In this document: positions 122-61,064 of the stretch, piece by piece | Layout of the letters: every line of letters begins with the position of its first letter | How positions within the stretch are numbered: position 1 is the first letter of the stretch | Source: a virus | IMG/VR virus record: IMGVR_UViG_3300023235_001181 | DNA: 64,000 bases | Strand: one strand, 5' to 3' | Position numbers and translations under genes: made by a program | Notes under the pieces: generated by a model | Database searches by the model: none | What the model was told of the DNA's origin: nothing | Seen by the model: only the letters and a program-made list of their open reading frames with translations

Positions 122-712
122 TCAGTAGGCCAAAATCCGCTTGAGATGATCTCGTCTTTTGCCCCAGCGAGTACCGAACTCTTCGATACTGTCCGGTGCG
201 GGGTCTGTCATCAGCTCGAGCCAGTGGTCCTCAACCCCCGCCCCGAAGTTTCGGATGTGTCCGTCCTCGATGAGTTGTCGTGCGAACAGTAGGGTCCGAA
301 GGCTGTGCCACACCTTCTTCCGGGCCTTGTCTGGGTCCGCTTGTATCAGCTTGACACCCTTGGCGAAGTCAGCATCGCTTGACGCCACGACACGGGCCTT
401 GAGCTTGTCGCCGTTCAGGGTCCATGCCCACGCCCGCGTACATACCATCCGGTGCGACTCGGGTGCCCAGAGCGCCTCCAGTGCGTAGAGACTCTGCTCG
501 TTGAGGGCAAGCTGGTATTCCAACGGGTTGTAGAGCGTGACGTTGTAGTCCCTGCCGAACAGAAGGTTCTTGATGACCGGCTCTTCGACCACCGCCACGA
601 AGTCCGTGTCACTCCCTTGCGTGGAGCAGCCGTACACCTGTGAGCCAACCCGCGCCGCAAAGACGATGGTCTTCCCAAAGAGGATCCGCTGTAGGTCAGT
701 CGTCGTCAACAT
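122..712 (-). CDS. nucleotidyltransferase (Pol-beta superfamily, PF10127/RlaP-like)
   Basis: 196 aa; GS-x9-DTD motif (GSQVYGCSTQGSDTDFV) typical of minimal NTases. Confidence 0.6.
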   Translation of the reverse strand: MLTTTDLQRILFGKTIVFAARVGSQVYGCSTQGSDTDFVAVVEEPVIKNLLFGRDYNVTLYNPLEYQLALNEQSLYALEALWAPESHRMVCTRAWAWTLNGDKLKARVVASSDADFAKGVKLIQADPDKARKKVWHSLRTLLFARQLIEDGHIRNFGAGVEDHWLELMTDPAPDSIEEFGTRWGKRRDHLKRILAY

Positions 713-34717: not shown

Positions 34718-34925
34718 TTTTCACGATTTCAAGTAGAAGAAGCACGGTGGCTCCTACACCTATTACCACGAACACGGCGGCGAACAGGAACCTGCCCCGT
34801 TTCTCCTTGGCGATCTCCTCATGGAACATCGCGTCGGTGATGTAGCCGTTGGCGGTGTTACCGAGCTCATCGAGCTGTCGCTTAACGGCCCGGTCCCAGC
34901 ACCCTTGGTAGCCTCGGGCTTCCAT
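34710..34925 (-). CDS. small membrane protein (C-terminal TM)
   Basis: 71 aa; FLFAAVFVVIGVGATVLLLL. Confidence 0.4.
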   Translation of the reverse strand: MEARGYQGCWDRAVKRQLDELGNTANGYITDAMFHEEIAKEKRGRFLFAAVFVVIGVGATVLLLLEIVKSL

Positions 34926-35503
34926 TATACCGTCATCATCGCGAGGATTGCCATGCCGTCACGCACGATGTCCCCGTGGTCGAAGCCGAAGATGATCTTG
35001 CCGGAGCGGATGTCCTCCTCATGGATCCAGGCGGTCCAGAAGGCGTCGTCGTCTCCCCGAGCCTTGCGGGCCTCAGCGGGCGTCACACGGCAGCAGTAGG
35101 CGAGGCTGACAACGTGGCGGCGGGGGTCACGGTCGGTGGCTCCGTACACGTCGATGAGCGTCATGAAGTCCCGCTCGAGGCCGGTCTCTTCCTTGAGCTC
35201 GCGCGGGGCACAGTCCTTGGGGTCCTCGCCGTAGTCCACGAACCCGCCCGGAGTGCAGACGAAGCCGTCGGTGTGGCAGTAGGGAGGGTTCGCACGCCCG
35301 ATGAGCAGGAAGTGTCGTCCCGCGCGGGTGGGAGCGGGGCCACGACGGTCCACCATCGTGTCGCCCAGCAGAGCGCGTCCCTCTTCCTGCCAGCCCTCCC
35401 AGTTGGGCAGGTCGTCCTCGGGGATGTCGGTAGCGACGAGGATGTCGGTGCAGAGGCTGGAGGTGCGGTAGGTCGGAGCTTCGAGCTGTTCAACGGTTGG
35501 CAT
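34925..35503 (-). CDS. Nudix hydrolase
   Basis: 192 aa; Nudix box GG.VDYGEDPKDCAPRELKEETG. Confidence 0.65.
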   Translation of the reverse strand: MPTVEQLEAPTYRTSSLCTDILVATDIPEDDLPNWEGWQEEGRALLGDTMVDRRGPAPTRAGRHFLLIGRANPPYCHTDGFVCTPGGFVDYGEDPKDCAPRELKEETGLERDFMTLIDVYGATDRDPRRHVVSLAYCCRVTPAEARKARGDDDAFWTAWIHEEDIRSGKIIFGFDHGDIVRDGMAILAMMTV

Positions 35504-39528: not shown

Positions 39529-39822
39529 TCAGAACTCGTTCCCGAATCGGCTCCGTCGGTTGCGTTGAGCCTCTTCGTGGTCACGGGCGCGCTCTGCCTT
39601 CTCTTCAGCGGCTTCGGCTGCAGCCGCTTCGACGGCCTCAAGGCCGGGCCAGTTGAGGATCTGCCCGGTAGCAGCGTTGATCTCCAGCTCGAGGTAGTCA
39701 CCGCCACCGATGCCAATGCCAGAGGGCACGTAGCCGTCATGGTCACTGCCATCGGGCCAGGTGATGCCGCACATGTCGCTCACCTTGCCGTTCACATGAA
39801 TGGTCTTGATCTCGTCGCTCAT
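39529..39822 (-). CDS. hypothetical protein
   Basis: 97 aa; start overlaps stop of upstream gene. Confidence 0.4.
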   Translation of the reverse strand: MSDEIKTIHVNGKVSDMCGITWPDGSDHDGYVPSGIGIGGGDYLELEINAATGQILNWPGLEAVEAAAAEAAEEKAERARDHEEAQRNRRSRFGNEF

Positions 39823-40550
39823 CCTCTCACCTCAGCGGGCAGTCCTGCGGGGATGCCCAGAAGGTCGCAGAGCTCACTCTCGGAGCTCACGACGTTGACG
39901 CCCCATGCTGGAAACACGTTGCGAAGGAAGTTGTTGTGGTGGATGCGCTTGAAGTCACCCACCAGGAAGCTGGGCACCACAACCTGATAGCCCATGGCGG
40001 TCGCCCGCTGCACGATGGAGCTCACCACGATGTGCGTCACGAAGCCGCCCACAACCACGCACACCTGGAGCGGGTGAAGGCCTTCATGCAAGCCCTCGAG
40101 CTGCTCCTTCAGGTCGGTCTCGAAGAAGCTGTCGAAGGTGGTCTTGGCGATTCGGTAGTCGATGTAGGGCGCAACGGCGTCCACCACTTCGGCCTCGAAG
40201 GAGTTCTCGTCAGCGTGCTCGCCGTACACGGCAAGCTCCTTCATCTGGAGCGGGTCGTTCCAGTTGTGGCTGTCGATGGTGGCGAGCTGGGGAATGTCCG
40301 CACGCTTCAACGTCTGCGCCCACACCCCGAGGTGGTCACCCATCAGAGCGAGGTTGCGCTCACCGATGTGGAGCGCCGGGTAGCCGTCACCGCGCATCTT
40401 GCTCTTCTCAGAGTCAGGGATCTCAGCAGCGGTGCAAGCGAACGCCTTGGTGGCATCTGCCCAAACCATGATGGTCATCTGCGGGCTCACCGGCCCACCC
40501 ATGGAGGGGATGTTGAGGTCGGGGAAGTACTCAGCGTTGGGCGTGGGCAT
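39819..40550 (-). CDS. isochorismatase/cysteine-hydrolase-family protein (nicotinamidase-like, tentative)
   Basis: 243 aa; VCVVVGGFVTHIVVSSIVQRATAMGYQVVV resembles isochorismatase core (GxxTHxCV). Confidence 0.4.
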   Translation of the reverse strand: MPTPNAEYFPDLNIPSMGGPVSPQMTIMVWADATKAFACTAAEIPDSEKSKMRGDGYPALHIGERNLALMGDHLGVWAQTLKRADIPQLATIDSHNWNDPLQMKELAVYGEHADENSFEAEVVDAVAPYIDYRIAKTTFDSFFETDLKEQLEGLHEGLHPLQVCVVVGGFVTHIVVSSIVQRATAMGYQVVVPSFLVGDFKRIHHNNFLRNVFPAWGVNVVSSESELCDLLGIPAGLPAEVRG

Positions 40551-43079: not shown

Positions 43080-44051
43080 TCAATCACCGAAGAAGTCCTT
43101 CGCCCACTCGAACTGGAAGCCCGCCCGTGCCGCAAAGGTCTGGTCGCTCTTCATGTCGCCCACGTAGATGCAGGCGTCCGGGTTGAGCTTGTACTTCTCG
43201 ATGAACACGACGCCCATGCCTGCCATCGGCTTGCGCCAGTAGGAGCTCGGGGGTCCACCACGGTCAGGGGCGAACAGGTACTCGATGTCATGTCCGAGCT
43301 GCCGGTTGGTCTCATCGAAGCAGTCGCGGCAGGTGACGTCGCTGACGTACTTGGGGCTGTCCGAGGCTTGGCTCACACCGCTCTGGTTGCTGATGCCCAG
43401 GATCCGGTAGCCCTTGTCGATGTACTCCTGGATGATGGCGGTACGTCCCTCCAGAGCGCGCACGTCCCCGATCTCCTTGGGGTAGTGGTCACCACTGTTG
43501 GTCAGGCGCAACGTGCCGTCGTAGTCGAGCAGCAGAGCCTTCCCCGTGTACTCGGAGCCGAAGTCGGTCACCACGTCCACTTCTTCGATGCTGTCGAAGC
43601 CCTCGGCCATGGTCGGGTCTTCGAACTGCTTCCAGTACGCAAACTGAGCCATGGGCGGGAACATGTTCGGGTTCTTGCGGTGCTTCTTGTACTCGGCCTT
43701 GCCGAAGAGCACACCGAACTTCTGGATCTGACGCCGGGCCGCAAAGAGCTGAGCCTGCTCACGGGTGGTCTGTAGCCACAGCACGCGGACAGGTAGGTTG
43801 AGCTGCCTTGCGTTCACCATCAGGCCCCGGCGTGCGGCGACGTTCCGGTAGGTGTTGTCAAGCACGAAGCGGCGCTTCCCGCGCTTGTACTGCTCCTGCA
43901 TCACCTTGTAGATCTTGCTGTCGGGACTGTTCAGCTTCCCGCCGATCTCGTCACGGTTGATGCGGGTGTAGCCCTGCTTCACGAGGGATTGGACGTGCGT
44001 GGTCTTCCCGCCGCCCGGAGGTCCCATGACAATGACGATTTCGTGTTCCAT
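43080..44051 (-). CDS. pnk: polynucleotide 5'-kinase/3'-phosphatase (T4 Pnk-like)
   Basis: 323 aa; P-loop GPPGGGKTT kinase N-domain; HAD phosphatase C-domain with LLDYDGTL (DxDGT) and GDMKSD motifs. Confidence 0.75.
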   Translation of the reverse strand: MEHEIVIVMGPPGGGKTTHVQSLVKQGYTRINRDEIGGKLNSPDSKIYKVMQEQYKRGKRRFVLDNTYRNVAARRGLMVNARQLNLPVRVLWLQTTREQAQLFAARRQIQKFGVLFGKAEYKKHRKNPNMFPPMAQFAYWKQFEDPTMAEGFDSIEEVDVVTDFGSEYTGKALLLDYDGTLRLTNSGDHYPKEIGDVRALEGRTAIIQEYIDKGYRILGISNQSGVSQASDSPKYVSDVTCRDCFDETNRQLGHDIEYLFAPDRGGPPSSYWRKPMAGMGVVFIEKYKLNPDACIYVGDMKSDQTFAARAGFQFEWAKDFFGD

Positions 44052-44309
44052 TCAATCCTCGAGTAGTAGCGCGAGCCTGTCCACTTCTTGTACAGGTGGT
44101 TCAACAACCTCAGGAGCCAGTTCGCGCGGTTCGTAATAGCCCGTCGTCCCGTCGTCATGACGGACGGTGAACACCGCGCCGTGCCCGTTCTTCAATCGGG
44201 TGATAATTCCGTACACGCCCCACTTCCTCGAGAGGAGTGCTTCGGGCATCCAGTCATTCGATATGGACTCAGGGCGCACGGTGAGCACGCGGTCGTTCAC
44301 GGCAATCAT
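44052..44309 (-). CDS. hypothetical protein
   Basis: 85 aa. Confidence 0.4.
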   Translation of the reverse strand: MIAVNDRVLTVRPESISNDWMPEALLSRKWGVYGIITRLKNGHGAVFTVRHDDGTTGYYEPRELAPEVVEPPVQEVDRLALLLED

Positions 44310-44720
44310 ACTCCAATCTCCAGGTATGGGTTCTGAGGATCATTCGTGTTGGTGATGGCGATGATGCCGTCCAAATCTCTGAAAATGGTAGCCATCACTT
44401 CGTCGTAGGTGTTCCGGTTGATGATCTGGTCCCTGTGCTTGAGGCACTGACCCTCCGCGAGGAGGATGTCAGGGGTGTACCGCTCCATGGTGGAGGGCCT
44501 CCTGTCCAAGACGAGGAGCAGCCTCTTGTCCTCGTTGTTCGCCAGTTCGCGCCACCGAAGCAGGTACGCTGACCGGACCTGGTACATGGACAGCAACGAG
44601 GTCATTTCGACGTTGAGGTCTGCCCTTGCAGCCTCGGTAGCTGCAAGGGTTTGCATGGCTCCTTCTGACACCCCCTCTTCCGGAGGGGGGTCAATCTCAA
44701 GTAGGAGGTGAAGCCTATCG
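44306..44720 (-). CDS. hypothetical protein
   Basis: ORF to 44821 overlaps Prs gene; true start likely internal. Confidence 0.4.
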
Positions 44721-45701
44721 AGAGCCACCCCAGCCTCGCGGGAGGTGGTGAAGCACGGAGTCCACCAACACCGGAGCGCATCGCATGATGCGGAAGATGC
44801 CGGAGGTGCCTGGCTTGTCAAGGGTGTTCACCATCTTCACGGCGCGCGGGTGGCTGTCAAAGGAGTACACCGCGTCGAGTACGCCGTCGAACATGGCGTG
44901 CGTGTCGGCGGGGCTCTTGGTGTAGACGCCGTGGCTCAGGATCGCGCTGACGCCAATGGCACCCGCGTCCATGTAGCTCTTCGCTCCACCCACGAGGCTG
45001 CTACCGCTCCGGGTCATGTCGTCCACGAGGATCACGTACTTGCCCTTGACGTCGGCGCTGACGTTGGTCACCTCGGTGGTCCCGCCGTCGATGCGTCGCT
45101 TGCCGATGAAGGCAGGGAGCCAGCCACCCATCTCGGAGGCGATGTACTCCACACGCTTCGCACCACCGGCATCAGCGGAGCCAATCACGGCATCAGCGAC
45201 GCCCTGCTCAGCCACGATCTCGCGGATCGCGTCGAGGATGATCGGCTGTCCACGAGAGTGGATCTGGTGGGCTCGGTCTCCGAAGTAGTGGGGGATGCCC
45301 TCTGCATGGAGATCGAGGAACACGATCCGGTTGCCGTTGTAGGCCTCGGGGATGGCGCTGAGCAGCCGGGCGCGCGTCTTGGCAGTCACCACCTCACGCG
45401 TCTTGGGCTTGGCGCGCTCCATGGTGCTGTACCCGAAGTAGGGGATCACGATGGTCAGAGAGCGAGCTCCGTAGGCCACAATCGCGCAGCAAGCGTCGAA
45501 CATCTCCATCGTGTCGTTGTCGTTGATGGTGCCGCCGAGGTACACCACGTCACGGTCACGCACTGAGGTTTCGATGCGCTGGTACCGCTCCCCGTCAGGG
45601 AAGGTCTTGATCAGCACCTCGCCCCGGTCGAAGCAGGGGTCTACGTCAACAAACGTAGGGGCGAGGTACTCGTAGCTTCGGGTAGCAAAGAGAAGAGGCA
45701 C
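44715..45701 (-). CDS. ribose-phosphate pyrophosphokinase (PRPP synthetase) family protein; could be an ADPR-PP-synthetase-type Prs homolog
   Basis: 328 aa; N-domain GEVLIKTFPDGE...RDVVYLGG, DLHAEGI, PRPP loop VILVDDMTRSGSS. Confidence 0.75.
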   Translation of the reverse strand: MPLLFATRSYEYLAPTFVDVDPCFDRGEVLIKTFPDGERYQRIETSVRDRDVVYLGGTINDNDTMEMFDACCAIVAYGARSLTIVIPYFGYSTMERAKPKTREVVTAKTRARLLSAIPEAYNGNRIVFLDLHAEGIPHYFGDRAHQIHSRGQPIILDAIREIVAEQGVADAVIGSADAGGAKRVEYIASEMGGWLPAFIGKRRIDGGTTEVTNVSADVKGKYVILVDDMTRSGSSLVGGAKSYMDAGAIGVSAILSHGVYTKSPADTHAMFDGVLDAVYSFDSHPRAVKMVNTLDKPGTSGIFRIMRCAPVLVDSVLHHLPRGWGGSR

Positions 45702-45714
45702 GTTGGTTCTCCTT

Positions 45715-46902
45715 TTAGAGGACGCTCTCTACGATACGAACGTAGAGGTCATCCAGCTTGTCCATGTCGGGGCTGTAAGGTAGCACGGGAGTGAGCTCGG
45801 GAAGGGGCTCGAGGCCCTTCTTCACCCGCGCAGTCACACGCTGCTTCTCGGTACCGTAGTACGATGTGTAGATGTCACCGAGAGCGGCGTTCTCGCGATC
45901 AGCCCAGTCCACCAACTCGTCGTAGGTCCAGGCACCCTTGCGGATAGCGAGGAGCTCTTCACGGTCGATCCCGCCGCGCCACACATGCACCTTGCCCGTC
46001 GTCAAGATCTCCCGTCCCATGCGGAGCAGGCGAACGAGGTGGGCACCGTGCTTGGTGTCGTAGCCGGAGGCAGCTTCCAGCGCAGCCCGCTTGGGGTTCC
46101 GCTGACGCTTCCAGGTCTCGAAGCTCTTCCAGTTCTTTTGGGCGTCCTTGTACCGCTTCTCACCCTTGAGGGCCTCGAGCAGTCCTTCGTCGATCCCGAT
46201 GGAGCGTGCGGCAGCAATCCACAGTTCATCGTCGGTGGTCACGCCGATGGTGGCGAGGGTCTCAGCGATGTTGTCCTTGGCGCGGATCTTCTCGCTGTCG
46301 GCCATTTCGCCGAAGTCCCACTTCCACTCGTCAAGCTGCTTGTCGATGGCGGCGAGGAGCACGTTGCGCTGATGCTGCGTCACCACTTCCTCACCGAGGC
46401 CAAACTCCTCGCGGGTCGGCTTGTGGGTCGGAGGGTTGAGCAACCAGGCCCGGTGTCCCTTGATGCGCTTGAGCTGCTGGAAGGCGTAGCCGGTGAAGCG
46501 GTGCTTGGCGGCTCCACTCAGGAAGAGGTCCCGGTGTTCGCGGAGCAACTGCCCGGCCCAGTTGTGCATGAGCAGCTCTTCGTCGCGGCAGAAGAGCACG
46601 TCGAGCATTCCGGGGTTGCAGTCGGCGGTCAGCTTCATGAACTTGCCGAGGCCGTACACGACGCCCTCGAGCTTCTCGCGTTCGGCGGCGTCCATCTGCT
46701 CGGCGTCGAGGTACTTGCGGAAGGGTTCCATCTGCCCAGGCTTGTCGCACTGGTCGAAACGCTTGCGGAAGGTCAAGTGGTACGGACGTGGAGGTAGGCA
46801 GACGCCCTTGAGGTCTACGTCCGAAGTGTCGGTGTGGAGCCCGTAAGCTCGGGAACCAGCCACTCCAACGAGGATCGCAGAGTCATGTAGGTCGAAATCC
46901 AT
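45715..46902 (-). CDS. nucleotidyltransferase (Pol-beta superfamily) with C-terminal extension
   Basis: 395 aa; GSRAYGLHTDTSDVDLKGV; second copy of the family in the window. Confidence 0.6.
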   Translation of the reverse strand: MDFDLHDSAILVGVAGSRAYGLHTDTSDVDLKGVCLPPRPYHLTFRKRFDQCDKPGQMEPFRKYLDAEQMDAAEREKLEGVVYGLGKFMKLTADCNPGMLDVLFCRDEELLMHNWAGQLLREHRDLFLSGAAKHRFTGYAFQQLKRIKGHRAWLLNPPTHKPTREEFGLGEEVVTQHQRNVLLAAIDKQLDEWKWDFGEMADSEKIRAKDNIAETLATIGVTTDDELWIAAARSIGIDEGLLEALKGEKRYKDAQKNWKSFETWKRQRNPKRAALEAASGYDTKHGAHLVRLLRMGREILTTGKVHVWRGGIDREELLAIRKGAWTYDELVDWADRENAALGDIYTSYYGTEKQRVTARVKKGLEPLPELTPVLPYSPDMDKLDDLYVRIVESVL

Positions 46903-49239: not shown

Positions 49240-49452
49240 CTAAGCCGAGCCGTACTTGTACGACTTGAACATCTGGTACTCGGTGTCCTCAATGAAGCCA
49301 AGCGCCCCGAGGGCCTTCTTGTCCTCGTCACTCACCGAGTCGTACTCCACGCCCACCTGCATCACGTCGTGTTCACAGTGAGTGGGCCACTTCGTGTCGG
49401 TGTACTTCCCAAAGATGGTGAAGGCAGCGATCAGTTCTTCGCATCCGGTCAT
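49240..49452 (-). CDS. small hypothetical protein
   Basis: 70 aa. Confidence 0.35.
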   Translation of the reverse strand: MTGCEELIAAFTIFGKYTDTKWPTHCEHDVMQVGVEYDSVSDEDKKALGALGFIEDTEYQMFKSYKYGSA

Positions 49453-50270
49453 GGCGAGATCTCCTCAGTCACTCGGTTCACCTCTGCTACGAGCAGGTCA
49501 GTGTCACAGGCGTAGAGGCCTGCGGAGCTGAAGCTGCCCACTTCGAGGATGTGGTAGTTGCCCGCCTTGGTCTGACACATGTCGAGCACCCAAACGTGGT
49601 CAGGCTCGTACTTCTGCTCCAAGCAGTAGTCCACGAACTCCTGGCCACGTCGTAGGGCGTCAGCCGTGGCAAGCTCGCGGGGGTGGTTGTACCCGCGTCG
49701 ATACAGAGAGCCGGTGACAACGCGCCCCTGGGCCACGAAGAAACGCCACTCCACCTCTACGTTGATGGGTCGAGCGACAACCACCATCGTTTCGGGCTTC
49801 ACCACGTCGTCGTAGAAGCCCATCAGCTCGATGTCCCTGTCCCACGTCTCCCTCTTCAACAACTGTCCGCTGAAGAGCTTCCGGTTGCTGTCAGGGCGCA
49901 CGAACAGGCACCCGTCCTCGCCCAACGCGGCGAAGAGCATCTCCTTGTGTGCAGTCAGGAGGCCGAACGGCATGAAGATGTGGTCGCGGTTGAGCAGACG
50001 GTCCCTGATGCGCGGGTAGTAGAAGGAGCACATGAGCTGGTCGGCGTTCTCGTAGACCGTCCATCCTTGCTCCCGCGCCATTTCCACTGCCTGAAGAGAG
50101 CCGTGGAACACCATCGGGTAGACGCCGTTCGTGGCGGCGAGCATCTCGAACCCTCCGTCCATCGGCATGAACTTGGGAGCGTAAACACTCCACCCCAATG
50201 CCTCAGCGGAGGCAGCGAGCTTGCTCTCGTACTCAGGCTCGATGCCCGTTTCGATCACCCAACCGGGCAT
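49449..50270 (-). CDS. hypothetical protein, possibly ATP-grasp-fold
   Basis: 273 aa; alternating beta-like segments (LFVRPDS, VVVARPINVEVEWRFFV, WVLDMCQTKAGNYHILEV) weakly resemble ATP-grasp central/C domains. Confidence 0.3.
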   Translation of the reverse strand: MPGWVIETGIEPEYESKLAASAEALGWSVYAPKFMPMDGGFEMLAATNGVYPMVFHGSLQAVEMAREQGWTVYENADQLMCSFYYPRIRDRLLNRDHIFMPFGLLTAHKEMLFAALGEDGCLFVRPDSNRKLFSGQLLKRETWDRDIELMGFYDDVVKPETMVVVARPINVEVEWRFFVAQGRVVTGSLYRRGYNHPRELATADALRRGQEFVDYCLEQKYEPDHVWVLDMCQTKAGNYHILEVGSFSSAGLYACDTDLLVAEVNRVTEEISP

Positions 50271-50327: not shown

Positions 50328-52541
50328 TCAGCTCTTGAACATGTCGTAGCTCATGTTCTTATCTACATCGCTCAGGAAGTGAGTGATGGCCGTCTCCACG
50401 GAGTCCCACTCAAGCGCTGCACCTTGACGCCCTTCGAGGTTCGCCTGAATGTACTCAGCCGCCTCCTTGAAGGAGCTCGCCTCGATGAGGGCCAGTGCCT
50501 CCCTGAAGGCGCTCACTGTGATGAACTCCAGCCGTCCGGCTTGCATCAGGATGTCGCTGATGCCGATGTGGCGGTACTCCTGACCCCGCTTCTTGGAGTA
50601 CTCGGGGAGCAGGTTCGGGTCGGCGAAGTACCACTCAAAAGAGCCTGGGTTCTCGTACAGCAGCACCTCGTCGGGTCGGGAGGGGTCGTCGAGCTGGTAG
50701 TTCAGCACCCAAGTCATCCAGCACCCGCCGTTCATCCACCGGTCGAAGGCCACGTCCATCACGGGGACGTCAGGGTTGCGCTCGCGGAGCCTCAGGTACG
50801 TCACGGCTGCCAGGAACATCCGCTTGCGCACGGGAGCTACCCAGCGTGCCGTGGGCTTGACACCCTCGTCGTTCTTGTCCCACTCGTAGCCCTCGCTCTC
50901 ACGGGGGGTGACGCCGTAGCTCAGAATCGATTGGAGCACGTTGTAGCTGAGGCGGATCCAGTCCGGGTGGAGCTTGTCGCCCGCTGTGCCGAACCTCATC
51001 GAAGTCCTGAGTCCGGCAGCGATTGTGGGCATACAGAAGCCCGCACTGTCGCAGGTGCTCCAATGGCTCTGCTGGAAGAGGAACTGAGGGATCTCGTACT
51101 CGGGGAGGTCGAACTCGGGTGCTTCGTACCGAGGCTGTCCGGTCTCGTGCCAATCGTCCTCGCGGGAGTTGAGGATGCGGTCCGCCGAGTAGGCAAGGCT
51201 CTGAGCCTTGGCGTCGTCGTCCATGGCATTCCACTTCGCCAGGATCTCCTCGCGGGGCTTGTCGCGGAAGCTGTACCCGTTGAAGAACGCGGCCACAAGC
51301 ACCTTCTCGGGCGGTGCCTCGAGTCCTGCTTCGCGGGTCACATAGTCGGTCAACTCGTCCGGGGCACGCACCCACTCGAAGGTCGCGTACTCGGTGGTGT
51401 CGTCGTCACGGGCGTTGTTGTGAACGAACTTGTAGACGCCTGGCTTCACGTCCACGACGCTCACGGTCCACCCGTCGAGCTCTTCCTTCACACGCCTCGC
51501 TGAATCCTCGCCAAACACGAACGCGCTGCGCCGGATGTACTCGTCGTAGTCCACGATGCTGTACCACCACAGGTCCGTACAGATGGAAGCCACATCCTCG
51601 CCCATGGCCTCTACGGCAGCTTCGTACTCGCCTTCAGCCCACTCCACGTTCTCGTACTTGTACTCGTCACCTTCTTTGCCGAGGTACGTGCTGCTCTTGT
51701 ACTCCTCGGGCACGCCTCCGGAGATGGTGTAGTGCTCTGCGTCCCTGCGGTACACGCTGGGGCAGGAGTTGCCGACGCTTGCGTGGCTCATGCCTACACG
51801 GCTGTAGGCCAGGGCGGTCTCGTGCTGTCCGAGGATCATGTTCACGGAGCTGACGGACTCGCTCATGGGGAACACGTCCCGCAGGTCGTTGGCGACAACG
51901 AGCTTGCCGCTTGGGACGTTGAGTTCCCAGGTGGTCGTGGGCAGTCCCTCGGGGTACTTGCAGGGAGCGCCCACTACCTTCCAGGTGCCGTCGAAGGACA
52001 CCTTGTAGCCTTTGCCGCAGTAGGTGCATTCGCTCGACATGCCGATGCGGATGATCTCAGGCTCGAGGGTCCACTCTCCGGTGTCGATGAAGTGCTGGTA
52101 GGCTACTGCCTGCTCCTTGGTGATCACCCGGAACCGGAAGTCCTCCTTGAGGCCACGGTCCAGCCAGAACTCCTTGCTGTAGGAGGAGATTGGCAGAGCC
52201 GTTCCGGAACCCCAGTGACCATTCCAGTCCTTGCACTCCAGCAGGGATGGCATCTTCTCCATCAGTGCTGCGCTCAGCGTCAAAGCCTCCGCGAAGTCGA
52301 GGAGCGGGCTGTCACCGCGCGCCTCCTTCTCCGCTTCACGCTTGGCTGCTCGAGCGATGCCGTCAGGGCTTTCCTTCTCTTTCTCAAGCCACGAACGTCG
52401 GTCGGTGGCAAGGGCGGGACGCACGAAACGGTCGTGGGGGAAACTCTCCCCATTGACTACAATCATGCCATCGACCACCGCCTCAACGAGCACGTCGCAC
52501 TTGAGGAGTAGGTCGTAGGCGGTTTCACCGGATCTAAGCAA
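50328..52541 (-). CDS. large hypothetical protein (737 aa)
   Basis: long uninterrupted ORF. Confidence 0.55.
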   Translation of the reverse strand: MLRSGETAYDLLLKCDVLVEAVVDGMIVVNGESFPHDRFVRPALATDRRSWLEKEKESPDGIARAAKREAEKEARGDSPLLDFAEALTLSAALMEKMPSLLECKDWNGHWGSGTALPISSYSKEFWLDRGLKEDFRFRVITKEQAVAYQHFIDTGEWTLEPEIIRIGMSSECTYCGKGYKVSFDGTWKVVGAPCKYPEGLPTTTWELNVPSGKLVVANDLRDVFPMSESVSSVNMILGQHETALAYSRVGMSHASVGNSCPSVYRRDAEHYTISGGVPEEYKSSTYLGKEGDEYKYENVEWAEGEYEAAVEAMGEDVASICTDLWWYSIVDYDEYIRRSAFVFGEDSARRVKEELDGWTVSVVDVKPGVYKFVHNNARDDDTTEYATFEWVRAPDELTDYVTREAGLEAPPEKVLVAAFFNGYSFRDKPREEILAKWNAMDDDAKAQSLAYSADRILNSREDDWHETGQPRYEAPEFDLPEYEIPQFLFQQSHWSTCDSAGFCMPTIAAGLRTSMRFGTAGDKLHPDWIRLSYNVLQSILSYGVTPRESEGYEWDKNDEGVKPTARWVAPVRKRMFLAAVTYLRLRERNPDVPVMDVAFDRWMNGGCWMTWVLNYQLDDPSRPDEVLLYENPGSFEWYFADPNLLPEYSKKRGQEYRHIGISDILMQAGRLEFITVSAFREALALIEASSFKEAAEYIQANLEGRQGAALEWDSVETAITHFLSDVDKNMSYDMFKS

Positions 52542-52544
52542 TGG

Positions 52545-54038
52545 TCACCTCATTGTCGGGAACAGAATCACGTCCCGAATTGATTGTGTGTCTGTCAACA
52601 GCATCACGAGCCGGTCGATGCCAATCCCCTCACCGGAGGTGGGAGGCATACCGAAGCTCAACGCGTCGATGTAGTCCTGGTCGAAGTACATGGCTTCATC
52701 GTCCCCGCGTGCCTTGGCAGCAGCCTGGGCCTGGAAACGAGCAGCCTGCTCAACGGGGTCGTTCAGCTCTTGGAAGCCGTTGGCGATTTCCATACCGGCG
52801 ATGTAGAGCTCGAAGCGGTCTGCTACCTCTGGGTCATCAGCAGATGCTCGAGAGAGTGGGCTGATGTCCAAGGGGAATCCGGTCACGAAGGTCGGCTGGA
52901 TCAGCTTGTCCTCAACGTACTCGTCGAAGTAGAGCTGGAACCACCGCCCGATGGTCCGGGGGAGCTTGGTAGCGTCCGGGTGGTCCTGTACCCACCTCGA
53001 GCGCATCTCGGGCATGGAGAAGGGGTCGTTGATGCCCGCGTGCTCCATGATCAGGTCGGCCATGCTCACGCGCCTGAAGGTGGTCAGGTCAAGCTCGTGC
53101 CCGTCGTAGGTGCAGACGTCCATCGGAAGGAACTCGCCAACCCGGCAGGCTTCCTCGTAGATGACGCGGTTGTTGGCACCACGGATGATGGCTTCGGTGG
53201 TGTCCATCAGGTCAGCCGGTGTGGCGTGGGCCTGATAGAACTCCAGCATGGTGAACTCGGGGTTGTGCGTCCCGTCCACTCCCTCGTTCCGGAAGTTGCG
53301 GTTCAGCTCGAACACTCGCTCGTAGCCACCCACGATGAGCCTCTTGAGGTAGAGCTCAGGGGCGATGCGTAGGTAGAGGTCCTTGTCGAGAGCGTTGTGG
53401 TGCGTCACGAATGGTCGTGCGTTCGCACCGCCTGGGAGCGTCTGCATCATCGGCGTCTCCACCTCCATGAACCGATGGTCTTCAAAGTACCTCCGGATGT
53501 AGGATACGATGGTGCTGCGCGCACGGAACCGGTCGCGAGTGTCTTGGCTCACGATGAGGTCGAGGTACCGCTGACGGCGCTGCTGCTCCACGTCGGTGAA
53601 CCCCGCGTGCTTGTCCGGCAGGCTCTTGATGCACTTGGAGTAGAGCGCAAGGCTGTCCACCTTGAGGCTCAGGTCACCGCGTCGGGTACGGATGAGCTGC
53701 GCTTCTGCGTACACCCAGTCGCCGATGTCCAACTTCTTCCACACGTCGGCGTACATGACGGGGCCGATGCCCGCACGGCGCACGAACAACTGCATCCGGC
53801 TTTCGCCATCCTCGATGAAGGCGAAGCCAATCTTGCCCATCTCGTTCTTCTGGACGATGCGTCCGGCCACACGGTAGACGGTGGTCTGCGCCTCCAACTC
53901 CTCCGCGCTCAGATCAGCACCGATGCGCAAGATCTCGAGCAGCCGGTGGCTGAGGTCCTTGGAGACGGGATAGGGATCTACGCCTTCAGCGCGTAGTGCG
54001 TCCAACTTTTCCAGCCGTGCTGGTTCAAATTCGCTCAC
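52545..54038 (-). CDS. lysS: lysyl-tRNA synthetase, class II
   Basis: 497 aa; motif 2 FRNEG..HNPEFTMLEFY, motif 3 GEGIGIDRLVMLLTDTQSIRDVILFPTMR, N-terminal OB anticodon-binding domain. Confidence 0.85.
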   Translation of the reverse strand: MSEFEPARLEKLDALRAEGVDPYPVSKDLSHRLLEILRIGADLSAEELEAQTTVYRVAGRIVQKNEMGKIGFAFIEDGESRMQLFVRRAGIGPVMYADVWKKLDIGDWVYAEAQLIRTRRGDLSLKVDSLALYSKCIKSLPDKHAGFTDVEQQRRQRYLDLIVSQDTRDRFRARSTIVSYIRRYFEDHRFMEVETPMMQTLPGGANARPFVTHHNALDKDLYLRIAPELYLKRLIVGGYERVFELNRNFRNEGVDGTHNPEFTMLEFYQAHATPADLMDTTEAIIRGANNRVIYEEACRVGEFLPMDVCTYDGHELDLTTFRRVSMADLIMEHAGINDPFSMPEMRSRWVQDHPDATKLPRTIGRWFQLYFDEYVEDKLIQPTFVTGFPLDISPLSRASADDPEVADRFELYIAGMEIANGFQELNDPVEQAARFQAQAAAKARGDDEAMYFDQDYIDALSFGMPPTSGEGIGIDRLVMLLTDTQSIRDVILFPTMR

Positions 54039-54164: not shown

Positions 54165-55736
54165 TTAGGCTGCCGCAGCCACCGCTTCCGCGCGGGCTCG
54201 GGTACACGTCTCGATCAAGCTCAGGGTGATGCCGTCCACGGCGGGTCGGTGTTCGAAGCCGTCACGTCGCGCCGAGTCACCGGGTCCGTACACACGCCAG
54301 CCCTTCGGGAGGTTGCCGTACTGACACACCATCGTAGCGGGTCCGTGTGAGGGGTGAGCAGCGTTCTCGCGCACGGCGAGTACCGGGATGCCGGGGAGGC
54401 TCTGCTTCCCGCTCCAACCCTCTTCCAGCTCATCGCCGAACTTCATGGTCGGTCCGTACTTGGACGTCCAGGCGAGCTTGTAAACCATGCTCACCAAGCC
54501 ACGTCGGTAGCCGGTGGGCTCCGGGCGGTCGATGAAGTAGCCGCCCGCGCCAAACAGCGTCACCTCTTCGGGGTAGTCAACCTCGATGCGGAGCGCCTCG
54601 TACCGTGCAACGTCCTTGTCGTCGATGCCGTCTTCAAATACCCACGGGCGGGGTCGGATGCCGCGTGCCTTGATCTCGCTCACGATGTAGCGGAACTGCT
54701 CCTCAAGGGAGCCGCTGTCGGGTCGCATCCCGTCGTTCCGGTCCGGAAACTCTTCCATGAGCTTCAGGGCGGTCGGGATGCCCACCTTCATCGTGTCGTT
54801 GGTGTCGAGCAGCATGATCACGAGGGGCATTGCGGCGATGTGTGCGCGGAAGGCGCGTTCGTCGTTGCCACCGTGGCGCATGATGCCCTCATGGCCCAGC
54901 GTGCCAACTGCCTTGATGTCCAGCACGTAGGCACCGTAGGCGTTGGAGGTCAGCGTGAAGCCGAGGTCCTTCAGAGCCTTGAGCGCGATGAGGTGCTGCT
55001 CCATGCAGGTTGCGGCGCGGAGGCCAACCTCGAAGATGCGGTTCGGGCTCACGCCGGAGGCCAGCATCTTGATGCCCTGCAACTGCACCGCGTTGTAGTA
55101 GCTGAGCTCGTCCACGGTGATGCCGTTTTCGATGTCCCGCAGCTCCTGTCGGAAGTCGGCATCGCCGAAGTCCCTGCCCTTGTGGGCACCGAGGATCGCC
55201 TCCATGGTGAGCTCCTTCTGGCGCTCACAGGTCACGGTGCGGATGGTCTCGAGGAAGGCGGGCATCGTGTCGCCCTCGCGGGCCTTGATGTAGGCGGTCG
55301 CTACCTGCATCTGGTAGCTGAAGCGTCCCGAAACCAACGGCTCGAGCCAGCTTGCGATGGCCTGAGGAGCTCGCACGGTAGCCACGGGCTCACGGGGAGC
55401 AGCGTACTCGCCAAAGGGTGTCGCGTAGAGCACCTCAAGGCTGGAGCCGTCCACGGAGTCCCACAGCATCTTCTCGGTCACGTTGAAGCCGAAGTGCTGC
55501 AGTAGCGCGCACTCTTCCTTCACGGTCGCTGAGGTGGGGTTGGGGATCATCTCGCGGATCGCCGTCTCGGGATCCACAGGCATGAACATGAGCCCGCCGC
55601 GTCGGAAGCTCAGATAGAACACTTCCTTCTCTTCGGGGCGTCCGCCAGCCATCATGGGCCACTTGTAGCCGTCCGATCCGAGGGTGCTTTCGCGCCAGGA
55701 TCGCTTGCCTGCAAGTAGTTGTCGTAGAATGCTCAT
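54165..55736 (-). CDS. nadV: nicotinamide phosphoribosyltransferase family protein (NadV/Nampt-like; alternatively a Namat-type transferase)
   Basis: 523 aa; GSDGYKWPM (cf. TDSYKVTH), GIRPDSGSLEE (cf. RPDSGNP), FGAGGYF (cf. FGSGGGL). Confidence 0.75.
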   Translation of the reverse strand: MSILRQLLAGKRSWRESTLGSDGYKWPMMAGGRPEEKEVFYLSFRRGGLMFMPVDPETAIREMIPNPTSATVKEECALLQHFGFNVTEKMLWDSVDGSSLEVLYATPFGEYAAPREPVATVRAPQAIASWLEPLVSGRFSYQMQVATAYIKAREGDTMPAFLETIRTVTCERQKELTMEAILGAHKGRDFGDADFRQELRDIENGITVDELSYYNAVQLQGIKMLASGVSPNRIFEVGLRAATCMEQHLIALKALKDLGFTLTSNAYGAYVLDIKAVGTLGHEGIMRHGGNDERAFRAHIAAMPLVIMLLDTNDTMKVGIPTALKLMEEFPDRNDGMRPDSGSLEEQFRYIVSEIKARGIRPRPWVFEDGIDDKDVARYEALRIEVDYPEEVTLFGAGGYFIDRPEPTGYRRGLVSMVYKLAWTSKYGPTMKFGDELEEGWSGKQSLPGIPVLAVRENAAHPSHGPATMVCQYGNLPKGWRVYGPGDSARRDGFEHRPAVDGITLSLIETCTRARAEAVAAAA

Positions 55737-55812: not shown

Positions 55813-56733
55813 TCAGCGGCGGGTACCAGTACGCACCATCAGGTTGAGGGTCTTCCCGCTCACTTTGAAGGTGGCTGTCTGTCCCCATGCGAACTCCAGC
55901 CGGTCAGATTCGATGCCGTCCCCGAAGATGACTCCACCTTCCTGCATACGCGACGTCACCTTGAGAGGAGCATCCGGCTCCACATACCCTTGCTGGATTG
56001 AAACGCCTGAGAAGGGGCTGTCCCAAGCCTCTCTCACCTGAAAGATCAGCACTCCCTCTTCGGGATCTGGGAAGGGCAGAGGGTTCCGGCGCTGTGATGC
56101 GACGGAGCTTGCCCAACCCGTACAACCCGTACCGGAGCTGATGATCATACCAGAGGAGCTCTGGTACTCGGTGTGCTGCTCGTAGGCGATGTCGTACTTG
56201 GCGCTCTGATGGGAGTGGTGTCCGCAGAACAGCTCGTTGAGGGCGATGATCTTCCGTCCCTCCTCTTGCGTTTCGTCGTCCTTGATCTCCACCTCCACCA
56301 TTGAGCGGCGCTGAAGCTTGGCGGTGTTGTTCTTGAGGTAGCCGTAGAGCAAGGGGATCTCCCGCTCACGCCACACCATCATCTTCGCCTTGTAGGAGGT
56401 GTCGGGGTTGATCCCGGCGACAGTCTGCCCGTCCAGGTACTTGGCTACGTTCGGGACCAAGCCGTCCTGCCCCACAGCAACGATGATGTCACCGGGCTGA
56501 AAGACAAACCTGTCCAGATCGCTCCGGAGGCAGCTCGTCTTTCGCCAGGTGTGTGGTACATCGCGGAGGGCACGGGCAGCAACTTTCAAGGTGACGGCGT
56601 GCATCCGTTCCACCTTGTCCATCGACTGCCCCATCAGCTCAAGCCTGAACCTCGCCATCTGAACGGTCCCGTGCTCTACGAGCAGAGATTCGTACTCGGT
56701 GGTTCTGCGAACCACTACTACTCGAGGTTCCAC
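55813..56733 (-). CDS. NAD kinase-like protein
   Basis: 306 aa; GDIIVAVGQDGLV (GGDG-type), IALNELF (NE/D motif), SGMIISSGTGCTGWASS (cf. [20 protein letters not shown]). Confidence 0.55.
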   Translation of the reverse strand: MEPRVVVVRRTTEYESLLVEHGTVQMARFRLELMGQSMDKVERMHAVTLKVAARALRDVPHTWRKTSCLRSDLDRFVFQPGDIIVAVGQDGLVPNVAKYLDGQTVAGINPDTSYKAKMMVWREREIPLLYGYLKNNTAKLQRRSMVEVEIKDDETQEEGRKIIALNELFCGHHSHQSAKYDIAYEQHTEYQSSSGMIISSGTGCTGWASSVASQRRNPLPFPDPEEGVLIFQVREAWDSPFSGVSIQQGYVEPDAPLKVTSRMQEGGVIFGDGIESDRLEFAWGQTATFKVSGKTLNLMVRTGTRR

Positions 56734-57958: not shown

Positions 57959-58177
57959 TCAAACGCCCTTGATGTCCCGTAGTCGCTTGAGCTCAAACGG
58001 GCTCGCGTGTTCGGTCCAATGGGTCCACGGGTCCACACCCAGTTCCTTGCCGACGTACTCGATGTTCTCGAGCTCCTTGCCCAGATCCGTTTCCCCGACG
58101 CCATGTGGGTCGTCGGAGAAGAGGTCGAGGTAGAGCTCGAACAGCTCGGCAACGAATTCCTGGGTGCGTGGTGTCAC
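57959..58177 (-). CDS. small hypothetical protein
   Basis: 72 aa. Confidence 0.35.
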   Translation of the reverse strand: MTPRTQEFVAELFELYLDLFSDDPHGVGETDLGKELENIEYVGKELGVDPWTHWTEHASPFELKRLRDIKGV

Positions 58178-58818
58178 TCGGCAGTCTCCCGCGCGGCGAG
58201 CATTCCCTTGCCGTTCCAGAAGGTCACGGCAGCACGCAGGGCAGCTTCAAACTGCACGGCGTCCATGTTGGTGCTCGAGCCGCCGTCGAGGCCGAAGTGG
58301 TTCGCCATGAGCGTACCCGGCGTCATCGGCTGGTCGCCTTCGGTCAGCTTGCCGAGAAGTGTCACCACCTCCCACTCGCTGCCGTTCAGCTCGTCCAGAC
58401 GCTCCGTGTCCTCTTCGAGAACCGAGCGGTTGTAGAGCACCACATCCACCCACATCGCCGCAGAAGGGATGCGCGGGCTTCCCAGCTTGTTGATGCGAGC
58501 CACCTTGGAGCTCTTGCGGGGCTTCTCACCCTCGCGCCGAGCCTTGTACTCCACCACGAAGCGGTCGTCCGGGGTGATGTCCACCACGGGGCAGGTGAAG
58601 AAGGTCTCGTCGAACAGCGCGAACACGTTCAGCGGTACGATGATCACACCGTCCCGGTAGCCCTCACGCTGAGCCGCCCATTCGAGCTGCACTGCCTCCA
58701 CAAGGATGTCCCACCGCTGGGTGCCCGCGTCGTCCAAGCACAGGAACTCCGTGAAAGAGGTTCCGGTGCGGTGGTGGTTCTTGCAGAAGCCACTGACGGT
58801 GATATCTTGTTTCGGCAT
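58174..58818 (-). CDS. hypothetical protein
   Basis: likely ATG MPKQDIT (ORF to 58860). Confidence 0.45.
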   Translation of the reverse strand: MPKQDITVSGFCKNHHRTGTSFTEFLCLDDAGTQRWDILVEAVQLEWAAQREGYRDGVIIVPLNVFALFDETFFTCPVVDITPDDRFVVEYKARREGEKPRKSSKVARINKLGSPRIPSAAMWVDVVLYNRSVLEEDTERLDELNGSEWEVVTLLGKLTEGDQPMTPGTLMANHFGLDGGSSTNMDAVQFEAALRAAVTFWNGKGMLAARETAE

Positions 58819-58858
58819 TTGGGTCCGTTCCTTGGGTCGTTGTCCGTAGTGCTCCCCC

Positions 58859-59676: not shown

Positions 59677-60402
59677 TCAGCCCGTCGCCCGAGCCTTGTC
59701 GCCCAACACGCTGTCGGCCGTCACGAAGGTTGCGCCCGCATCACCGAGGGTGCGGAGGCTGAAGTTCATGCCACCCTCGTCACCGCTCACGGGAGGCACA
59801 TCGAGCGCCACACAGGCGTCGGTCACCACTTCCACGGTGTAGCCACGCTCGAGCAGTCCGGTCACGAAGCCGTCAACGCAGAAGCCGCCGAGGCAGTAGC
59901 CAAACACGCGGAAGATCACGTTGTCCTTGCCGCCCATCTCTTCCACGAGGTGTGCGATGTACGCCTCAGCGATGGGGTTGCTGAAGGCGCTGTACACCTC
60001 CTTCTCGAAGTAGAGGCCGACGCCCGCAAGAGCCTCGGTCGTGAACTCCGTGGAGCCGTACACGCGGGGGCCGTTCCCAGCCTTGTCCTCGCCGATGCAG
60101 CCGTCGCCACCCCAGCTCATGGGGAGGAAGCGGAAGCGGGGAGGCAGCGTGCCGTCGAGCTTCAGCCAGTCCCAGGTGCCCTTGACGGCGTGGGTGGGGA
60201 AGATGCCACCGTTGTCGATGAACTCCCAAGCGTCGTAGCTGTGGCTGTCCACGCAGCCAATGAGGGGCTCGTTGGTGGCAAGGGCGCGAGCCACAAGGCC
60301 ACGAATGCGGTCGTTGACGGTGTCGTCAGCGACGGAGAGGTTGCCGTCCTTGTGTGCGAAGGCGTTGGCGGTGTCGACGTCGACGTTGATGTAGCGGGCC
60401 AT
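59677..60402 (-). CDS. nicotinamidase/isochorismatase-family hydrolase (PncA-like)
   Basis: 241 aa; N-terminal INVDVDTANAF, KEVYSAFSN, VFGYCLGGFCVDGFVTGLLERGYTVEVVTDACVA (catalytic Cys region). Confidence 0.6.
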   Translation of the reverse strand: MARYINVDVDTANAFAHKDGNLSVADDTVNDRIRGLVARALATNEPLIGCVDSHSYDAWEFIDNGGIFPTHAVKGTWDWLKLDGTLPPRFRFLPMSWGGDGCIGEDKAGNGPRVYGSTEFTTEALAGVGLYFEKEVYSAFSNPIAEAYIAHLVEEMGGKDNVIFRVFGYCLGGFCVDGFVTGLLERGYTVEVVTDACVALDVPPVSGDEGGMNFSLRTLGDAGATFVTADSVLGDKARATG

Positions 60403-60404
60403 GA

Positions 60405-61064
60405 TCAGGTCTCCTTGGAGAAGCGGTAGGTTGTTCGTCGGCCTTTGCTCTGCTCAGTCACCGGTTCGATGACGCCCAGCGCAGTAGCCTTCTTTCTCAA
60501 GTTCGAGCTGTCTTCCGCCTTGCCCGTGATGTGTCCCATCAGGTCGCGGTAGTCGCTCATGTTGAAGTTCATGTAGAGGAAGCCCGCAACCACGTCCGGG
60601 TCGTAGCGGTGCTTCTTGAGGAATTCCTGAGCGAACTCAAGGATGCCCCGATGGTCGAATGCAAGGTCCATGTTCAGCGCAGCGGCGAGTGGCGTCCACC
60701 CGTCGTGTCCCCTGAATACGTGGGAGATCGGGCAGATGTGCGCCACGCTGAGCACCTTGTCGCGGGTGTCCCGGTCGAAGCCGTCAAAGACGTGCATCTG
60801 TACCGGTTGAACCTGCGCGTGTGCCTCGGGCACGTAGCGTCGTAGGGAGCGGCGTACCGCATCAAAGAGGAGTTCGTTGGGCTTCACAAACGCGCCGGGG
60901 AGCGCCAACTGGCCCATCGCCGGAGGGTTGCGCCGCCTGATGAGCTTCACGCGGAGCTCAGGGTCTACCACTACAACGTCCACCGCCAGAGGCGGGTTCT
61001 TGTACTGCGAACGGTCGTAGTCCGCAAAGTACTCTTCGTCGGTGATGTGGGTTTCGTCGGGCAC
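60405..61064 (-). CDS. NrtR-like protein: degenerate Nudix domain + C-terminal winged-HTH
   Basis: 219 aa; Nudix-like GQLALPGAFVKPNELLFDAVRRSLRRYV with degenerate REx2EE; C-terminal NLRKKATALGVIEPV...GRRTTYRF matches NrtR wHTH pattern; 3-nt gap to PncA-like gene. Confidence 0.5.
   Translation of the reverse strand: MPDETHITDEEYFADYDRSQYKNPPLAVDVVVVDPELRVKLIRRRNPPAMGQLALPGAFVKPNELLFDAVRRSLRRYVPEAHAQVQPVQMHVFDGFDRDTRDKVLSVAHICPISHVFRGHDGWTPLAAALNMDLAFDHRGILEFAQEFLKKHRYDPDVVAGFLYMNFNMSDYRDLMGHITGKAEDSSNLRKKATALGVIEPVTEQSKGRRTTYRFSKET

Follow-up and report, generated by a model that had tools for sequence, protein, structure and literature searches.

The locus analyzed here lies in a 64,000-nt stretch of the IMG/VR virus record IMGVR_UViG_3300023235_001181 (the whole stretch is referred to as the window), which is huge-phage-like and clearly belongs to a parent genome much larger than 64 kb. 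Five minus-strand genes are tightly packed there in the order of an RlaP-family nucleotidyltransferase (NTase), a phosphoribosyl pyrophosphate (PRPP) synthase (Prs), a 116-aa open reading frame (ORF), an 85-aa ORF and a polynucleotide kinase-phosphatase (Pnkp). The Pol-beta NTase (395 aa, ATG start) occupies 45715..46902 and Prs (328 aa, GTG start after AAGGAG) occupies 44715..45701; both ORFs, and the GS...DxD signature of the NTase (G16-S17...D28-x-D30), were found as an earlier sequence-only reading had described them. Both start codons are supported by the N-termini (MPLLFA... in Prs and MDFD... in the NTase), which align with those of relatives. The two genes are separated by 13 nt, and the RlaP TAA stop lies within the AAGGAG Shine-Dalgarno sequence ahead of the Prs GTG. 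A short spacer with a Shine-Dalgarno sequence separates Prs from the 116-aa ORF (44306..44656, assigned by reading the sequence, ATG at 44656 after AAGGAG). This ORF is part of a listed 171-aa ORF whose N-terminal portion, overlapping Prs, is probably not translated, and searches of the enclosing ORF against Pfam and PHROG returned no match. The 85-aa ORF (44052..44309, minus strand) overlaps the upstream ORF by ATGA and Pnkp (323 aa, 43080..44051, minus strand) by TGAATG, and was also without a family match in Pfam and PHROG. A scan for sigma-70 promoters found none, and terminator-like sites fell on the non-coding strand only, at or below shuffle expectation, with none on the strand of the array. 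Because of the tight spacing, the overlaps and the lack of a terminator-like site on that strand, the five genes were judged from the DNA to form, probably, a single transcription unit. Megablast of 12 kb against GenBank phages returned no match.

Prs was identified by family searches, structure prediction and motif comparison. It scored over the cutoffs of NCBIfam TIGR01251 (146.9 bits, cutoff 113) and Pfam Pribosyltran_N (1e-16, 61.2 bits, cutoff 25), also matched Pfam Pribosyltran and PHROG_619, and retrieved PRPP synthase (PRPS) entries from the PDB at 1e-26 by sequence search. The AlphaFold (AF2) model (pLDDT 87.5, pTM 0.86) was compared with the PDB by Foldseek and aligned to human, E. 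coli, B. subtilis and Legionella PRPS with TM scores of 0.78-0.86 over ~325 columns. As modelled, the protein has the full two-domain PRPS fold, C-terminal elements included, which bears out the complete PRPP-synthetase architecture previously ascribed to it. The catalytic residues E38 (FLAG Glu), H132 (DLH His), D177 (Mg-site Asp, DAGG), K201/R203 (KRR catalytic loop) and D227/D228 (ribose-binding DD) are invariant across the alignments.

Prs departs from canonical enzymes at two loops. Residues 91-96, the regulatory flexible (RF) loop, read YSTMER where canonical Prs reads YARQDR, and the loop VILVDDMTRSGSS (residues 223-235) contains DDMTRSGSS in place of DDMIDTGGT; residues 34-38 read FPDGE. 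Homology searches placed the protein in a large chromosomal family (~306 aa, hundreds of genes) distributed among Cytophagales, Sphingobacteriales, Myxococcota, Planctomycetota and others. The matches were 45-53% identical to Prs; in all, Prs is 40-54% identical to cellular subfamily members and 26-29% identical to canonical Prs (E. coli ~28%), and T93-M94-E95-R96 and D227-D228-M229-x-R231-x-G233-x-S235 are invariant in phage and cellular members of the subfamily. The divergent PRPP loop singled out by the sequence-only reading is thus present, but it is not specific to the phage, and an origin of the divergence in a phage-specific change of substrate was rejected since the loop is invariant in chromosomal homologs. 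Class IV PRPS were recently defined by an RF loop with STMER, where Thr replaces the R96 equivalent, together with retention of the FLAG-region Glu; Class II enzymes read TTMER and have lost this Glu (PMC13252144, bioRxiv 2026). By its motifs Prs is a Class IV PRPS, because YSTMER and the Glu of FPDGE match this definition. In the same study a recombinant eukaryotic Class IV enzyme was a hexamer that converted ribose 5-phosphate (R5P) and ATP to PRPP, and Class I was also present in 74% of the bacterial species having Class IV; the class was described without an NAD-operon or phage context, and its physiological role was left open. The window protein shares with the published class the STMER motif, the FPDGE Glu, the catalytic His, Asp, KRR and DD residues and the full fold. 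It differs in being phage-encoded and in three features of its phage clade, namely a C-terminal HHLPRGWG tail (window 44715-44780) that is invariant in 6/6 phage-clade Prs and that cellular Class IV enzymes lack, a variable insertion that follows residue ~165, and DAGG in place of the cellular DAGR.

Genes related to NAD were spread across ~25 kb of the window. A minus-strand gene at 54165-55736, 8.46 kb and ~10 genes upstream of Prs, encodes a 523-aa phosphoribosyltransferase and is the sole member of the nicotinate phosphoribosyltransferase (NAPRTase) superfamily in the window. In NCBIfam it matched nicotinate phosphoribosyltransferase models only (TIGR01513, 1e-24, under cutoff), and in the PDB it matched the E. 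faecalis NAPRT structure 2f7f (1e-9). BLASTP aligned it with canonical PncB in the active-site region (E 2e-8) and gave no significant match to ICP1 Namat (E 0.22); tblastn of ICP1 Namat against the window gave no match at E<1e-4. Judged by these comparisons the transferase is a divergent PncB-like enzyme that resembles neither Nampt nor Namat. The Nampt homolog formerly placed 9 kb from Prs is therefore a NAPRTase-superfamily gene at about the distance given, but it is PncB-like and not a Nampt. Directly upstream of it is a 306-aa ORF (55813..56733, minus strand) with weak NAD kinase-like similarity (NCBIfam, 9e-5, far under cutoffs). In Marivirga tractuosa, a homolog 31% identical to it directly precedes the Class IV prs (L081, 5030-5947). 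Further upstream on the same strand are an isochorismatase-family protein (59677..60402, Pfam 5e-8), which is a candidate nicotinamidase PncA, and a Nudix protein with an NrtR-type winged helix (60405..61064, NUDIX 3e-5, NrtR_WHD 9e-4), a candidate ADP-ribose (ADPR)-binding regulator or ADPR pyrophosphatase by its domains; both are syntenic with the phage locus L001. A second isochorismatase-family protein (39819..40550, minus strand, Pfam 4e-15) is 74% identical to its orthologs in L001 and L003, and a second Nudix hydrolase (34925..35503, minus strand, Pfam NUDIX 1.5e-16) is syntenic in L001, L003 and L099. NadE and NadD were sought in the 64 kb window with Pfam, PHROG, NCBIfam and tblastn, and none was found.

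Other genes are interspersed with these. Between the first isochorismatase and the NAPRT-like gene lie, in a row and on the minus strand, SPFH/Band-7 (56743-57861), DUF3228 (58174-58860) and ClpP (58894-59631) genes, and ClpP is directly ahead of the NAPRT-like gene in L099 too. The NAPRT-like gene is separated from RlaP-Prs by an insert of ~8.5 kb that contains small ORFs and three larger minus-strand genes, encoding a class II Asp/Lys/Asn-type aminoacyl-tRNA synthetase (52545-54038), a 737-aa protein (50328-52541) and an R2K-clade ATP-grasp enzyme (49449-50270). The only match of the 737-aa ORF was PHROG_33592; Pfam, NCBIfam and PDB sequence searches returned none. A 607-aa homolog is present in L003 (4968-6791), where it is part of the NAD cluster, with the NAPRT-like gene on one side and NadE on the other. 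Nothing usable came from PDB searches with the 737-aa ORF and a 583-aa ORF.

The phage clade of Prs was sampled in six lineages, consisting of the window, L102, L100, L003, L099 and L001. Searching IMG/VR with the single Prs protein returned nothing, and all that alignment-based scans of IMG/VR and metagenomes retrieved was canonical Prs and Class IV of the cellular type, so that the phage clade gained no members. With x for other genes, the arrangement is RlaP-Prs-x-x-Pnkp in the window and in L100 (Prs 57% identical to that of the window), RlaP-185aa-Prs-x-Pnkp in L102 (77%), NadE-x-RlaP-Prs-x-Pnkp in L003 (71 kb, 55%), NadE-RlaP-x-Prs with no Pnkp in L099 (34 kb, 50%) and NadE-Prs in L001 (478 kb, 63%), which has neither RlaP nor Pnkp at the locus. 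A common backbone of LPG-synthase-like, methyltransferase, NrtR-like Nudix, isochorismatase, NAPRT-like, Prs, VWA-like, isochorismatase, Nudix and DUF1848 genes was recognized in the window, L001, L003 and L099. In L001 and L099 little or nothing separates the NAPRT-like gene, NadE and Prs, and a NadD-like gene adjoins the NAPRT-like gene in L003. The proposed tie of Prs to NAD+ metabolism and to a NAPRTase-family gene is upheld by this contiguity with NadE in relatives. Jumbo-phage Preiss-Handler clusters (pncB-nadD-nadE) were already known, and the report on them makes no mention of Prs or PRPP (PMC11662467). Those clusters share with L001, L003 and L099 the deamidated salvage route and the grouping of NAPRT-like, NadE and (in L003) NadD-like genes; the present clade differs by adding a dedicated Class IV PRPS together with isochorismatase and Nudix/NrtR-like genes.

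Neighborhoods of Class IV prs were then compared outside the phage clade. A Rhodocytophaga homolog lies in a pncB-prs-nadE operon. In 88 loci, all ORFs within 3.5 kb were clustered with no prior query set, and the recurrent neighbors were PncB (30, all adjacent), NadE (17), NrtR-like Nudix (13), PncA (10), Nampt (9) and PfkB sugar kinase (8); no recurrent purine or pyrimidine neighbors appeared. Across 168 loci, a NAD-salvage neighbor was present in 96 (57%, despite short contigs), comprising PncB in 60, NadE in 50, NrtR/Nudix in 40, PncA in 22 and Nampt in 16. The bacterial loci (L015-L094 and L105-L184) had NAD-salvage surroundings in 93/160, with pncB before prs, nadE after it, and nrtR-like Nudix, pncA, nampt or PfkB kinase genes close by. 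These contexts suggest a physiological role for Class IV PRPS in NAD salvage. Second prs paralogs regulated by NrtR in NAD-salvage operons were described earlier, with no purpose assigned to them at the time (Rodionov et al. 2008, PMC2330246). As with Class IV, those paralogs were dedicated prs genes clustered with nadV or pncB, nadE and nrtR; they differ from the present case in that the NAD genes of the window are dispersed. The paralogs named there may not all be Class IV, and some of the prs-nadV pairs (e.g., Shewanella) may be closer to Adps-Namat.

The surroundings of Prs also bear on whether it acts as a general supplier of PRPP for phage nucleotide synthesis, with its NAD neighbors being incidental. 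PRPP is a precursor of purines, pyrimidines, His, Trp and NAD, the distance between Prs and the NAPRT-like gene in the window is 8.5 kb, the window also encodes a dCMP deaminase (16638-17276, on the opposite, plus strand) and other nucleotide-related enzymes, and ~43% of cellular Class IV loci, many of them on short contigs, are without a NAD neighbor. Against such a general function stand the contiguity of the NAPRT-like gene, NadE and Prs in relatives and, in cellular loci, the NAD-neighbor rate given above and the lack of recurrent purine or pyrimidine neighbors; it was considered unlikely.

Prs had also been proposed to act as an ADP-ribose pyrophosphokinase of the Adps type. Adps proteins make up a clade of their own that is specific to phages, and 97% of them have Namat no more than 10 genes away (bioRxiv 2024.02.11.579819); in the structure of ICP1 Adps (PMC13586617) a remodelled PP loop, conserved family-wide, binds the ATP donor and helices alpha11-alpha12 are lost. 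ICP1 Adps, ICP1 Namat, the Adps of the rV5-like phage ChuuTotoro and E. coli Prs were used as references. Neither Adps nor RlaP structures turned up in the copies of the PDB that were searched. A neighbor-joining (NJ) tree was built from 34 sequences, including two Adps and three canonical references, with Poisson-corrected distances and 200 bootstraps, and the STMER subfamily was split from the Adps pair and canonical Prs in 200/200 bootstraps. Prs of the window is 17-25% identical to Adps proteins. Its PP loop (DDMTRSGSSLVG) lacks the DDI(C/A)DG(A/G)A(S/T)F pattern of the Adps loops (ICP1, DDICDGAASFKF; ChuuTotoro, DDIADGGATFIH), it reads DLH and KRR in place of the Adps DPH and K-x-R, and its C-terminal helices, modelled at 285-294 and 309-318, align to PRPS C-termini, while Adps proteins are only 280-287 aa long. 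Identification of Prs as an Adps was rejected, since every comparison made (clade, PP loop, C-terminus and Namat vicinity) came out against it. In ICP1, an ORF annotated 'nucleotidyltransferase' (ORF223; L096, 2402-2815) lies ~1.7 kb upstream of the Adps-Namat pair.

An enzyme with Adps-like activity would supply ADP-ribose pyrophosphate (ADPR-PP) to a NAPRTase-family transferase, as in NARP1, or, in a deamidated variant, would allow nicotinate and ADPR-PP to be joined into nicotinate adenine dinucleotide (NaAD) for NadE. The window resembles the NARP1 system (Osterman et al.) in having a phage enzyme of PRPS fold, a setting of NAD+ reconstitution and a partner of the NAPRTase superfamily; it is unlike it in the clade of Prs, the DDMTRSGSS loop, DLH/KRR, the C-terminal helices and a PncB-like partner ~10 genes off. 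Several further observations would agree with this activity: Prs belongs to the superfamily that includes Adps and has a NAPRTase-superfamily gene ~10 genes upstream, the NAPRT-like protein is far from canonical PncB, the window, L001 and L099 have NAD clusters that lack NadD, and NadE adjoins Prs in relatives, a protein of the ADPR-sensing NrtR-like family is co-located with Nudix genes, and the Class IV ATP pocket is altered, with Asp changed to Arg in the R5P loop. In addition to the separate clade and low identity, the missing Adps loop, the retained DLH/KRR and C-terminus and the lack of Namat similarity in the transferase, this activity is opposed by the pairing of cellular Class IV members with clearly canonical PncB or Nampt, by the use of R5P by the characterized Class IV enzyme (PMC13252144) and by the NadD-like gene beside the NAPRT-like gene in L003, which implies a nicotinate mononucleotide (NaMN) intermediate. 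Adps-like activity was accordingly regarded as quite improbable. A fully deamidated NARP1 analog, in which Prs would make ADPR-PP, the NAPRT-like enzyme would combine it with nicotinate to NaAD and NadE would complete NAD+ so that NadD is bypassed, perhaps with RlaP in the module, would fit the absence of NadD from most clusters of the clade; it was given a somewhat lower standing again, as highly improbable.

The 395-aa NTase was assigned by family searches and conserved residues. It matched Pfam PF10127 RlaP (1.1e-16, 61.7 bits, cutoff 23) and PHROG_388 (7e-51, residues 8-335), and its residues G16-S17 and D28-x-D30 are invariant; position 101, within L-[DE]-x-L-F, is D (E in L104). From these matches the NTase is an RlaP. 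Its nearest GenBank phage relative is <=46% identical, and a sequence search of the PDB with RlaP gave chance matches only. Pnkp, three genes downstream in the same array, is of the T4 type, with an N-terminal P-loop kinase (GPPGGGKT) and a C-terminal HAD 3'-phosphatase (DYDGT); it matched Pfam AAA_33 (1e-12) and PNK3P (1e-10), and the PDB PNKP entries 1yj5 and 3zvl in both domains (2e-19). A scan of the 64 kb window for tRNA genes found none. The name RlaP derives from an association with RNA ligases. RlaPs of Pseudomonas (PfRlaP/PaRlaP) add 1-2 nucleoside monophosphates to RNA 3'-OH ends and do not act on DNA or protein; they prefer mimics of damaged tRNA and restore aminoacylation of over-trimmed tRNA, and T4 NrdC.11 belongs to the same family (PMC12776372). 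RlaP was also reported as the most prevalent RNA-repair NTase in jumbo phages (PMC7824862). The window protein is like the characterized enzymes in its Pol-beta core, three acidic residues, long C-terminal region, proximity to an RNA end-healing enzyme and membership in a large-phage family; it is unlike them in that an RNA ligase did not turn up in the 64 kb and that, within the clade, its gene sits between NadE and Prs.

Two earlier proposals for the NTase did not hold. An antitoxin-like minimal NTase of the MNT/HEPN kind, to which the generic GS...DxD Pol-beta signature could point, was rejected and has a negligible chance of being correct: such proteins have ~100-150 aa, as against 395 aa with a large C-terminal domain here, the RlaP score is well over cutoff, PHROG_388 is matched across 330 residues and no HEPN partner was detected among the neighbors. 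Use of the activated ribose product by the NTase disagrees with its assignment to an RNA 3'-end repair family and with the presence of Pnkp in the array. A second NTase of 196 aa (122..712, minus strand) had been listed as another member of the same family. It shares the GSxxYG..SDxD core with the 395-aa protein, but common membership is only weakly supported because BLASTP aligned the two across 43 aa (4e-4) and the match to Pfam RlaP (1.8e-4, 21.7 bits) is under the 23-bit cutoff.

Linkage of RlaP to Prs was evaluated within and outside the clade. RlaP is found by Prs in 5/6 lineages, and Pnkp accompanies RlaP in 4/5. RlaP or PNKP was found beside Class IV prs in 0/168 loci outside the phage clade. 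The nearest GenBank RlaP (L104, a 485 kb uncultured phage, 43-46% identical) has no Prs or NAD genes within 12 kb on either side, and in ChuuTotoro the Adps-Namat pair and RlaP are ~32 kb apart. L001 is nested among the RlaP-bearing lineages in 184/200 bootstraps, so its state is most simply explained by loss; it has kept the NAD genes and Prs without RlaP and Pnkp, that is, the module stands alone there. Gene order is conserved throughout the region, which confounds the linkage of Prs and RlaP in the clade; in the sampled loci this linkage has a single evolutionary origin with no independent recurrence. A conserved co-occurrence of the pair, which had been put forward as informative, therefore exists in five of the six lineages of one syntenic clade but not beyond it, and falls short of a clean absence of conserved linkage. 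We infer that the adjacency is inherited synteny of one phage clade and does not reflect a shared pathway.

A role for RlaP inside the NAD module, as an NaMN/nicotinamide mononucleotide adenylyltransferase replacing NadD or as a user of PRPP or activated ribose, was weighed on the same observations. The position of RlaP between NadE and Prs in L003 and L099, its proximity to Prs in most lineages, the absence of canonical NadD from most clusters and the lack of a detected RNA ligase in the window are compatible with such a role. Pol-beta NTases normally transfer to hydroxyl and not to phosphate acceptors, the characterized RlaPs act on RNA 3'-OH only, RlaP coexists with a NadD-like gene in L003, L001 has the NAD module but no RlaP, and RlaP travels with Pnkp in the clade and is missing from Class IV loci elsewhere. 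Participation of RlaP in NAD synthesis was thus held to be very remote.

Taken with a rough probability of 0.7, the array juxtaposes two known counter-defense modules, one for NAD+ salvage and one for RNA repair. Gene identities, motifs, clade placement, neighborhoods and synteny were analyzed here, and the activities were taken from literature on other members of each family; from these we infer how metabolites would flow and that Prs and RlaP are not coupled. In the NAD+ salvage module, NADase-type defenses would yield nicotinamide and ADP-ribose, and the isochorismatase/PncA-like enzyme would convert nicotinamide to nicotinate. Phage Nudix enzymes could cleave ADP-ribose to AMP and R5P, a possible source of R5P from which, with ATP, the Class IV Prs would form PRPP. 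The PncB-like enzyme would then combine nicotinate and PRPP into NaMN, and NadD and NadE, encoded by phage relatives and, for the window, presumably supplied from elsewhere in the genome or by the host, would finish NAD+. In the RNA-repair module, Pnkp would heal the ends of cleaved tRNA, RlaP would put back nucleotides removed by "smart" ribotoxins, and a ligase would seal the break.

Several observations weigh against this two-module interpretation. Class IV activity was measured on a eukaryotic enzyme, neither bacterial nor phage, and the Class IV Asp-to-Arg change in the R5P loop and the HHLPRGWG tail, confined to the phage clade, are left unexplained by it. The NAPRT-like protein is highly divergent and under every curated cutoff, and the window is without NadD and NadE, so the NAD route is incomplete there. 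Pfam, PHROG, NCBIfam and tblastn searches of the 64 kb window did not detect RNA ligase, the usual partner of RlaP. The RlaP-Prs pairing persists even though Prs has diverged to ~50% identity, RlaP lies between NadE and Prs where NadE is present, and RlaP-Prs is the more persistent pairing compared with RlaP-Pnkp, because L099 keeps RlaP without Pnkp; a functional link between RlaP and Prs may exist given this persistence.

Both proteins belong to known, recently characterized families, and NAD+ salvage and RNA repair by phages are well-established subjects. Modestly new are the tie of Class IV PRPS to NAD-salvage operons, its capture by a huge-phage clade beside Preiss-Handler-type genes, and the invariant, phage-specific C-terminal tail. 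If the two-module interpretation holds, its consequences are mostly of a housekeeping kind, in that three likely mis-annotations are corrected (Prs is not Adps, its partner is not Nampt and the NTase is not an orphan). The Prs paralog of bacterial pncB-prs-nadE-nrtR salvage operons would then be Class IV PRPS, and a huge-phage clade would have taken it to extend Preiss-Handler-type NAD+ reconstitution, by which R5P derived from ADP-ribose could be recycled. The sequence rules that separate Adps from true PRPS are useful when phage anti-defense genes are cataloged, and the RlaP-Prs-Pnkp array offers a convenient candidate operon for two counter-defense functions, against NADases and against anticodon nucleases.

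Further genes were recognized elsewhere in the window, all on the minus strand. A full-length IF-3 lies at 13915-14448 (IF3_N 3e-29, IF3_C 2e-28), and LPG_synthase_C-like genes (aminoacyl-tRNA-dependent transferase-like) are present in a complete copy at 61845-62801 and a partial copy at ~63615-63989. The remaining assignments were a fusion of DFP (CoaB-like) and class II aldolase (5440-6987), a 764-aa AAA ATPase (11093-13387), a histidine phosphatase (15343-16050), an RNase T-like exonuclease (18738-19370) and a metallophosphoesterase (20865-21641).

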